DNA from: Phycisphaerae bacterium
GTDB taxonomy: Bacteria; Planctomycetota; Phycisphaerae; UBA1845
Direction of reading: 5' to 3'
Assembly (NCBI GenBank): GCA_029260055.1
Contig: JAJDDX010000382.1
Location: forward strand, 2,562-66,561
DNA: 64,000 bases
Position 1 is the first letter of the stretch; each line of letters begins with the position of its first letter. The translations under genes were made by a program, and so were the position numbers. Under the pieces are notes generated by a model that worked only from the letters and a program-made list of their open reading frames with translations, was not told the origin of the DNA and ran no database searches. Shown here one piece after another: positions 37,055 through 39,124 of this stretch.

Positions 37055-39124
37055 ATGAGTGTCGACCTGTCGACAGTCCGGAACATCGGCATCGCCGCCC
37101 ACATCGACGCCGGTAAGACCACCACCACCGAGCGTTTCCTTTTCTATACGCGCCGCACCCACAAGATGGGTGACGTGGACGCGGGCACGACGACCACCGA
37201 CTTCGACGAAGAAGAGCAACGGCGCGGCATCACCATCTACTCAGCCGCGGTCAGTTGTCCCTGGAAGAACCACACGATCAACCTGATCGACACGCCCGGC
37301 CACGTCGACTTCACCGCCGAGGTCGAGCGAGCGCTGCGCGTGCTAGACGGCGCTGTGGCCGTCTTTGACGCGAAGGAAGGCGTCGAGGCCCAGTCGGAAA
37401 CGGTCTGGCGGCAGGCGGACAAATATGCCGTACCGCGCATCTGCTTCATCAACAAGATGGATCGTATCGGGGCCGATTTCGAACGATCGGTCATCTCGAT
37501 CCGCGAGCGACTCGGAGCCAACCCGGTTGCGATTCAGTGGCCCATCGGAGCCGCCGACGACTTTGCGGGCATCATCGACCTGATCGAGATGAAGGCGATC
37601 TACTACGAATCGGCGGAACTCGGGGCGTCGTTCCGCGAGGCCGACATTCCGGCCGAACTCGCGTCCGTGGCGCAGGCATGGCGCCGTCGGTTGCTCGAAA
37701 CGGTCGCCGAGACCTCTGACGAACTGCTGGACAAGTACCTCACCGAGGAGACGCTGTCGGCGCAGGAGATCAAGGGCGCCATTCGGGCGGCGACCATCCG
37801 CCGTGAGATGGTGCCGGTGCTGTGCGGCAGCGCGCTGAAGTACGTCGGTGTACAGCGCATGCTGGACGCGGTTTGCGATTACCTGCCGAGCCCGCTCGAC
37901 ATGCCGCCCGTCAAGGCGCACGACGCCAAGCGAACGGACGTGACGCATGAGCTCCCCTGCGACCCCAACGGCCCGCTGGCAGCACTCGTGTTCAAGATCG
38001 TCACGGAGAAGCCCGTTGATCTCTACTACATGCGGATCTATTCGGGCACGCTCAAACCGAATGCCCGACTTCTCAACGCGAACACGGGCGAGAAGGAGAA
38101 CATGTCGCGCATCAACCGCATGTTCGCCAAACGCCGAGACGTGTTGGACTGTGCGCTCGCCGGCGATATCGTGGCGGTGGTCGGCCCGAAACATGCCCTG
38201 ACCGGCCACACCCTTTGCGATGCGCGGCACCCGATATTACTCGAATCCATCACGTTCCCGGAAACGGTCATCAGCGTGTCGGTGGAGCCCAAATCGTCGA
38301 GGGATCGTGACAAGCTGCTGGACGCGCTCAAGGCGCTCGAACGCCAGGATCCCACGGTCTCGGTCAGCATCAACGAGGAGACCGGTCAGACACTGATCGC
38401 CGGCATGGGCGAACTGCACCTCGAGATTGTCGTACAGCGGCTCCGGTCGGATATGAACGTCGACGCCCTAGTCGGCAAACCGCGCGTGTCGTACAGGGAA
38501 ACCGTGACCGCCGTCGGCGAGGCTGAAGCCCGGTTTCAGCGGGTTATCGGGGGGCGGGAGCACTTCGCCGCCGTCCGATTGCGGATGGAAGCCCGCGAGC
38601 ACAGAGCGGATCGGGCGAGCTTCGAAATCGCGTCCGAGGTGCCCGCCGGGACGCTGCTTCCCGAGTATGTACGCGCGATCGAGGAGGGCATCACGGATGC
38701 CGCGCAAAGCGGAATCCTCGGCGGCTACCCCGTCATCGACTGGCGCGTGACGGTCCTGGGCGGTGAGCAGCACGCGCAGAACAGCTCCGAAATGGCATTC
38801 GAGTCGGCCGCGCGCATGGCGTTTTATGAAGTCATGAAGGCTTCCGGTCCAGTGTTGCTTCAGCCGATCATGGAAGTCGAGGTTGTGACCGTGGACGAGT
38901 ACTTCGGCGGCATCGTCGCCGACCTGAACGGGCGCCGGGCGGTGGTGCGTCAGACGGAGATCCGCGGGACTGATCGAGTGATTTCTGCCGACGTCCCCCT
39001 CGCTGAGATGTTCGGCTACGTGACTCGCCTGCGGAGCCTGTCTCAGGGCCGTGCTACGTCGGCCATGGCGCCCTCCCATTATGCGCGGGTTTCCCCGGAG
39101 GAAACGCGGGCTCTGGTGGGGTAG
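37055..39124 (+). CDS. fusA: Elongation factor G
   Basis: [26 protein letters not shown] and NKMD G-motifs. Full length. The last 73 codons (including the stop) are duplicated 1136 bp downstream. Confidence 0.97.

Follow-up and report, generated by a model that had tools for sequence, protein, structure and literature searches.

In E. coli K-12, prophage e14 resides in icd and supplies the last 165 nt of the gene, and the displaced native end is left as the pseudogene icdC (PMC6379469, PMC13626634). Recombination between the icd repeats restores a functional chimeric gene (PMC13626634).

The locus described here lies in a 64,000-nt stretch of DNA from a Phycisphaerae bacterium (GCA_029260055.1, contig JAJDDX010000382.1), which we call the window and whose positions serve as coordinates throughout. 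As with e14 and phage 21 in icd, the 3' end of a gene is duplicated as direct repeats of which the upstream copy keeps the gene intact, the differences between the copies are mostly synonymous, and the similarity runs on into the non-coding flank. Instead of icd in E. coli, the target is fusA, an essential gene for a translation factor, in a Phycisphaerae-like planctomycete. While e14 is 15.2 kb long and carries intE and xisE, the window insert measures 0.9 kb and has no recombinase. The two cases also differ at the edge of the repeat: the first 11 nt of the e14 repeat are identical and form a candidate crossover core, whereas the left edge of the window repeat is its most diverged part, with six differences in 31 nt.

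The window insert can also be compared with integrase-less islands and “grounded” prophage remnants, with which it shares short cargo, att-like repeats of a gene end and the lack of a recombinase of its own. For the window insert, however, neither a cognate integrase nor an autonomous relative was found; it could owe its present form to mobilisation in trans or to decay from a larger island. Campbell-type integration, as of a suicide plasmid with a gene fragment, gives the same topology, with direct repeats of the length of the fragment that are each a hybrid of resident and incoming sequence. We consider it probable, at roughly 0.7, that a 1,136-nt unit was inserted by one crossover in the 3' end of fusA and carried a surrogate end of this gene from a closely related lineage.

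The fusA-rpsJ junction

The gene order in this part of the window is rpoC, rpsL, bioY, rpsG, fusA, the insert, a fusA 3' fragment, a promoter-like site, and rpsJ with the S10 operon. The features at the junction are:

37049 to 39124, plus strand: fusA, encoding EF-G, intact (Pfam GTP_EFTU, EFG_III, EFG_IV and EFG_C; 100% match to database protein P0001)
38905 to 39145, plus strand: direct repeat copy 1, with the final 73 codons, the stop codon and 21 nt of 3' flank of the working fusA (repeat search, codon comparison)
39146 to 39251: non-coding left arm of the insert, in which roughly the first 35 nt retain a weak match to 40282-40316 of the native fusA 3' flank (gapped alignment); no significant RNA structure
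39252 to 39689, minus strand: gene for a 145-aa retropepsin-like (clan AA) aspartyl protease with a DTGAS motif (Pfam Asp_protease_2 5.6e-7, RVP 4.2e-5)
39677 to 39913, minus strand: gene for a 78-aa partner protein, ATG at 39913 (weak, sub-threshold DUF5678 match only)
39914 to 40040: right arm of the insert, upstream of the module, with an imperfect 34-nt tandem pair (local alignment against shuffles)
40041 to 40281, plus strand: direct repeat copy 2, the displaced fusA 3' fragment, 73 codons, stop codon and 21 nt (repeat search, codon comparison)
40337 to 40364, plus strand: promoter-like site in front of rpsJ, TTGACA-16-TATCCT (10 of 12 positions matched in a consensus scan)
40428 to 40739, plus strand: rpsJ, encoding S10, first gene of the S10 operon (Pfam Ribosomal_S10 8.8e-36)

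The database entry for this EF-G (P0001) starts at the ATG at 37055 and has 689 aa. The C-terminus of the protein, ...ALVG, is as in relatives (the usual family end is ...LVG). The first-pass annotation had correctly recognised a repeat of 219 nt in the coding part, but the repeat is longer than that: it comprises 241 nt at 91% identity and reaches 21 nt beyond the stop codon. Copy 2 runs directly into the S10 leader and precedes the S10 promoter-like site; it has no upstream half that Pfam would recognise. The spacer between copy 2 and rpsJ is 167 nt, and the promoter-like site is the sole match of the consensus scan in 38800-40500. No Rfam family was detected in the 38-41 kb region. In syntenic loci of Phycisphaerae and Planctomycetota (L002-L007), fusA is directly followed by rpsJ, with spacers of 127 to 423 nt, and a second fusA end was seen in none of the 81 other fusA loci searched.

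As the source is a metagenome-assembled genome, the diverged fusA ends of two co-occurring strains might have been stitched into one contig, and identical blocks of 40 and 54 nt within the repeat would allow an assembler to switch paths. However, a single Logan unitig (L001, from SRR15505517, 977 nt) matches window positions 39083-40059 exactly, with both junctions inside it. In one sequence it carries bases specific to copy 1 (C at repeat position 208; the AT and C variants past the stop codon), the whole cassette, and the copy-2-specific bases A4, G12 and G15. The cassette is therefore truly flanked by two different fusA ends on one molecule, and an assembly artefact is very improbable.

Some other features of the host DNA deserve mention in their own right. 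The str operon contains a bioY-type biotin transporter gene (35775-36338, plus strand, Pfam BioY 2.3e-23) between rpsL and rpsG. The same placement is seen in the related loci L002 and L005, and bioY is absent from other loci with adjacent rpsL and rpsG. Because the placement is common to L002 and L005, bioY in the str operon looks like a lineage-specific conserved feature and not like a recent insertion. The fusA gene for the closest EF-G homologue (75% identity; L082, GCA_049644045.1, contig JBARRC010000297.1) lies outside a str-operon context, with unknown genes on both sides, an ABC-transporter ATPase gene further upstream and no rpsJ, so that fusA synteny is not uniform within the clade. 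Palindromic elements of 45 nt (GGGTGGCATGGGCAAGC...GCTTGCCCGTG) occur in five copies within 270 nt (6039-6308), with a sixth at 58471-58515, 52 kb away; they look like REP-type intergenic repeats. A 63-nt direct repeat (111-173 and 1412-1474, 92% identical, 1301 nt apart) brackets a region that holds an Rfam match to the Acido-Lenti-1 sRNA (1248-1294, minus strand, 38.7 bits against a threshold of 37). Finally, a 444-aa Fic/DOC-domain protein is encoded at 15341-16675 on the minus strand, among cell-envelope and housekeeping genes.

The inserted two-gene module

The insert between the repeats has 895 nt (39146-40040) and a GC content of 55%, against 62.7% for the window, whose genes have a GC3 of about 0.8. 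The gene for the 78-aa protein overlaps the start of the protease gene by 13 nt. The protease has 362 homologues of 145-146 aa in many phyla, among them Planctomycetota, Acidobacteriota and Pseudomonadota. The pair of 78-aa and 145-aa genes, with the identical overlap, is also present in L083-L098, and it occurs as a pair of 83 aa and 148 aa in L100. Identities of the 78-aa partner protein to its counterparts in other contigs are 73, 56 and 51%. The neighbours of the module vary from place to place and include HicAB, Peptidase_M78 and an IS1595 transposase, all in unrelated metagenomic contigs; in L084-L090 the context is as in L083, where no flanking repeats were found around the module. The closest module elsewhere has 70% DNA identity to the window cassette, ending exactly at the ORF boundaries. 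Because of the GC content of 55% versus 62.7% and the presence of the module in unrelated genomes, we read the insert as foreign to this genome, a reading that composition and distribution both support. The module probably has its own promoter.

In a further contig (L091), a 56-nt direct repeat (3021-3076 and 4443-4498 of that contig, 86% identical) surrounds HicAB together with the 78-aa/protease module. It begins at the stop codon of the upstream gene and contains a hairpin. The likeness to the window lies in a diverged repeat around small cargo, but the L091 repeat is non-coding.

The module had no match on phage or viral contigs, and the comparison with plasmids gave one distant match at 28% identity. 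Searches of Pfam, NCBIfam and PADLOC gave clan AA protease matches, the sub-threshold DUF5678 match and, as the sole defence-related match, a weak PADLOC candidate (PDC-M08B, E=0.0025); beyond the latter they assigned the cargo to no known toxin, antitoxin or defence family. The single-sequence AlphaFold model of the 78-aa partner (pLDDT 66) was too poor for a fold search. Type II toxin-antitoxin modules likewise consist of two small, co-directional and overlapping genes that travel together among unrelated genomes, but the cargo, unlike them, has no match to a known toxin or antitoxin family. Judged by its architecture, the cargo layout resembles a toxin-antitoxin or accessory module.

No recombinase is encoded in the insert, which has only the two ORFs for the protease and the 78-aa protein, and none was found among the window ORFs scanned with Pfam, a scan that left aside ribosomal and other core genes. 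Several classes of element were considered and rejected. An integron gene cassette does not fit, as there is no RYYYAAC/GTTRRRY pair in 39125-39251 on either strand and no integrase in the Pfam-scanned window ORFs. In a search for an attC-like fold or structured RNA, the DNA folded no better than shuffles. An insertion sequence or transposon was rejected for want of a transposase and of terminal inverted repeats at the insert ends. As a fresh target-site duplication, a flanking repeat of 241 nt with 9% divergence would be too long and too diverged. The cassette borders hold no tandem repeat apart from the imperfect 34-nt pair in the right arm. A literature search for fusA as an attachment site found nothing relevant.

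Substitutions between the two fusA ends

Codons were compared between 38906-39124 and 40042-40260, each 219 nt and in frame with fusA, over 72 sense codons and the stop. The copies differ at 16 sites, 14 of them synonymous and two non-synonymous, and share 70 of 72 aa. The replacements are at codon 2 (GGC in copy 1 and AGC in copy 2, G/S) and codon 7 (CTG and ATG, L/M), and all 12 differences in codons 8-72 are silent. The first-pass annotation had reported the same counts, with both replacements in the first seven codons and 12 of 12 silent differences from codon 8 to the stop, and the comparison bears it out. The differences are spread over the repeat as follows:

Repeat positions 1 to 31: six differences, both replacements included
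Repeat positions 32 to 71: no difference
Repeat positions 72 to 153: nine differences
Repeat positions 154 to 219: one difference

Two long blocks are identical, one of 40 nt (positions 32-71) and one of 54 nt (154-207), and at the left edge of the repeat the identical runs are 4 and 7 nt at most.

By the Nei-Gojobori method, S is 60.3, N is 155.7, dS is 0.278 and dN is 0.013, which gives an omega of 0.047. The binomial probability of at least 14 synonymous differences among 16 is 1.2e-6, and in a simulation of 16 random substitutions a single one of 200,000 sets reached 14 synonymous. A copy decaying neutrally after a local duplication would be expected to show about 72% replacements. The divergence of the two fusA ends was shaped by purifying selection on the protein. 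With an omega of 0.047 and P of about 1e-6, it therefore did not build up in a neutrally decaying local duplicate, as the first-pass annotation had argued, and we reject neutral decay, barring a fragment that is itself translated and selected.

That proviso corresponds to a local tandem duplication in which the cassette landed between the copies and the fragment came under selection as a translated small protein, starting at GTG 40051 or ATG 40060. Copy 2 is indeed an open frame of 69 codons (67-69, depending on the start) with no stop or indel, and the L to M change creates an in-frame ATG. However, the fragment is without the first part of EF-G domain V, and it sits between the antisense cassette and the S10 promoter-like site without a promoter-like site of its own. 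The position of codon 7 is Leu in 213 of 215 EF-G homologues; the change of this Leu to Met is the only difference that touches a near-invariant residue, and it falls in copy 2. Moreover, 91%-identical repeats 1.1 kb apart would have to escape homogenisation and deletion until dS reached 0.28. Because of the truncated domain V, the position of the fragment, the Met at a conserved residue and the lack of such a fragment in all 81 other fusA loci, translation of copy 2 is unlikely, and the local duplication as a whole is scarcely probable.

The preferred reading, an insertion that carried a surrogate fusA end, has a close counterpart in icd. The identical calculation for icd and icdC (165 nt) gives 12 differences, ten synonymous and two conservative replacements, with dS 0.28, dN 0.016 and omega about 0.06, and the similarity of icd and icdC continues past the stop codon into the terminator region. 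As these numbers nearly equal those of the window, the fusA pattern is one already known from inserts that come with a surrogate gene end. At fusA, a gapped alignment past the stop codon has 36 of 52 positions identical and extends to about 55 nt, the part beyond the 241-nt repeat being weak (z of about 1.8 against shuffles). The non-coding flank past the stop is about 31% diverged, near the silent-site divergence, as would be expected for orthologous DNA of two lineages. Taken together, the low omega, the foreign insert, the uninterrupted synteny of L002-L007 and the icd/icdC control support well the first-pass claim that one terminus came with the cassette from another lineage.

Route of insertion and origin of the working EF-G terminus

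These data suggest a model for the origin of the locus. The incoming unit of 1,136 nt would have combined the 895-nt two-gene cassette with the 3' end of a fusA gene, some 220 coding nucleotides followed by 20-55 nt of downstream flank. It would have entered via one reciprocal crossover inside the resident fusA 3' end, and a single crossover of this kind would always duplicate the gene end. The upstream copy would then complete the working EF-G, and the downstream copy would be a truncated, untranslated remnant beside the native S10 promoter. In this model the two copies are alleles of two closely related lineages; each belonged to a functional fusA before the insertion took place, and for this reason their differences are almost only silent. 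The enzyme may have been a site-specific recombinase, as for e14 and phage 21 at icd, that was provided in trans or has been lost since, or else RecA, working on the homology that the unit carried. As codons 8-72 encode an identical protein in both copies, a recombination between the repeats at any point of this stretch would excise the cassette and leave EF-G unchanged. Against a single crossover speak the lack of a recombinase, of an empty site or donor among the sequences searched, and of a long core without differences at the repeat's left edge.

Three routes, namely site-specific, Campbell-type and homology-facilitated illegitimate recombination, yield this structure, and all of them support the view that the two ends are two alleles. 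In favour of the site-specific route is the imperfect tandem pair of 34-nt units (39992-40025 and 40026-40059), of which the second spans the junction between cassette and copy 2. The pair has a local alignment score of 25, against 11.2 +/- 2.2 for shuffles (none of 2000 as high), and is composed of GCAGATTCT..CCGGC plus a fusA-like tail; GCAGATTCT has only two occurrences in the window, both in the pair. The units may serve as binding sites for a recombinase or may be left over from an older junction. This route is weakened by the lack of a recombinase, of an identical left-edge core and of a motif matching the pair at the other (left) arm. For the Campbell-type route, identical blocks of 40 and 54 nt suffice for RecA if the minimal length reported for E. 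coli is taken as the measure. It needs, however, a circular 1.1-kb fusA-bearing intermediate, none of which is documented here, and 91% identity makes a poor RecA substrate.

The third route departs from a single crossover and would proceed from linear DNA of a related donor that had an unduplicated cassette between fusA and rpsJ. The donor fusA would have served as the homologous anchor, and the far end of the cassette would have been joined at a microhomology inside the recipient fusA. The last 220 nt of the recipient gene would thereby be duplicated, giving two alleles of which copy 1 is the imported one, and the imported tract could reach further upstream. This scheme agrees with the lack of a recombinase, with a 4-nt microhomology, CGGC, exactly at the right junction (40041-40044 and 38905-38908), and with the resemblance of the carried 3' flank to the native fusA-rpsJ spacer. 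It leaves unexplained, however, the degenerate second junction motif 34 nt inside the cassette arm and the clustering of both non-synonymous changes in the first seven codons of copy 2, and no donor arrangement is known. We regard it as unlikely.

Relatives of this fusA are distant, and its lineage has been sampled a single time. In a search of 5.8 billion proteins, the nearest full-length EF-G has 75% identity and the nearest C-terminal fragment 79% over a 109-aa query; among GTDB species representatives the EF-G identity is at most 62%. The genome, protein and metagenome collections searched contained no relative closer than 75-79% protein identity and yielded no empty site, donor lineage or second fusA-targeted cassette; two codon-degenerate scans for C-terminal peptides specific to the lineage had no match in the JGI metagenome contigs. 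Short EFG_C proteins on long contigs were also encountered and look like contig-edge or frameshift products. The nearest tail is identical to that of the window at 58 of 72 positions, against 70 of 72 between the two copies. The copies are each other's nearest sequences, with nothing closer sampled, which speaks neither for nor against xenology. Codon-usage polarity of the silent differences (sum of log2 ratios 3.2 over 14 sites) does not separate resident from imported; the rarer codons AGG, GTA, AGT and TTG are held by copy 2.

If a single crossover took place, its position would decide which parts are foreign. On its 3' side, copy 1 would be imported and copy 2 resident, and on its 5' side the reverse would hold. 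The first-pass annotation had concluded from the contiguity of copy 2 with the native S10 promoter region that the working terminus may be the imported one. Within the repeat, this argument is valid on the 3' side of the crossover, but not on its 5' side. As far as the small numbers of differences allow, their distribution fits a crossover in or after the 40-nt identical block, in which case the diverged left edge of copy 2 might have come with the incoming DNA as an arm that was never translated. A crossover in the 54-nt block (positions 154-207) would limit the imported part of the working EF-G to about its last 12 codons. A “silent xenologous replacement” of the EF-G C-terminus is thus plausible, with an extent that depends on the position of the crossover.

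The mechanism class has long been known, and the finding is real but ordinary: a single instance with a well-known precedent, it leaves current understanding unchanged. New are fusA as the target, at the junction of the str and S10 operons of an uncultured Phycisphaerae-like bacterium, and an insert that is very small and lacks an integrase. Only this lack of an integrase is out of the ordinary; a very small cassette without one here has an architecture that is usual for whole prophages. It is conceivable, but rather improbable, that the unit is a recombinase-less, self-targeting mobile cassette that carries the working end of an essential and conserved gene. Such a cassette would insert beside the gene via the carried homology, or via a host recombinase acting on the repeated junction motif, and could leave as a small circle without damaging EF-G, a minimal form of “homing by carried gene end” for small modules. 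Where a gene end is duplicated and the copies differ only silently, an insertion that came with its own end of the target gene is reliably indicated; in the present case, this marks the C-terminus of an essential translation factor as possibly foreign (xenologous). If more examples are found, they could show how small accessory modules spread without a recombinase of their own.
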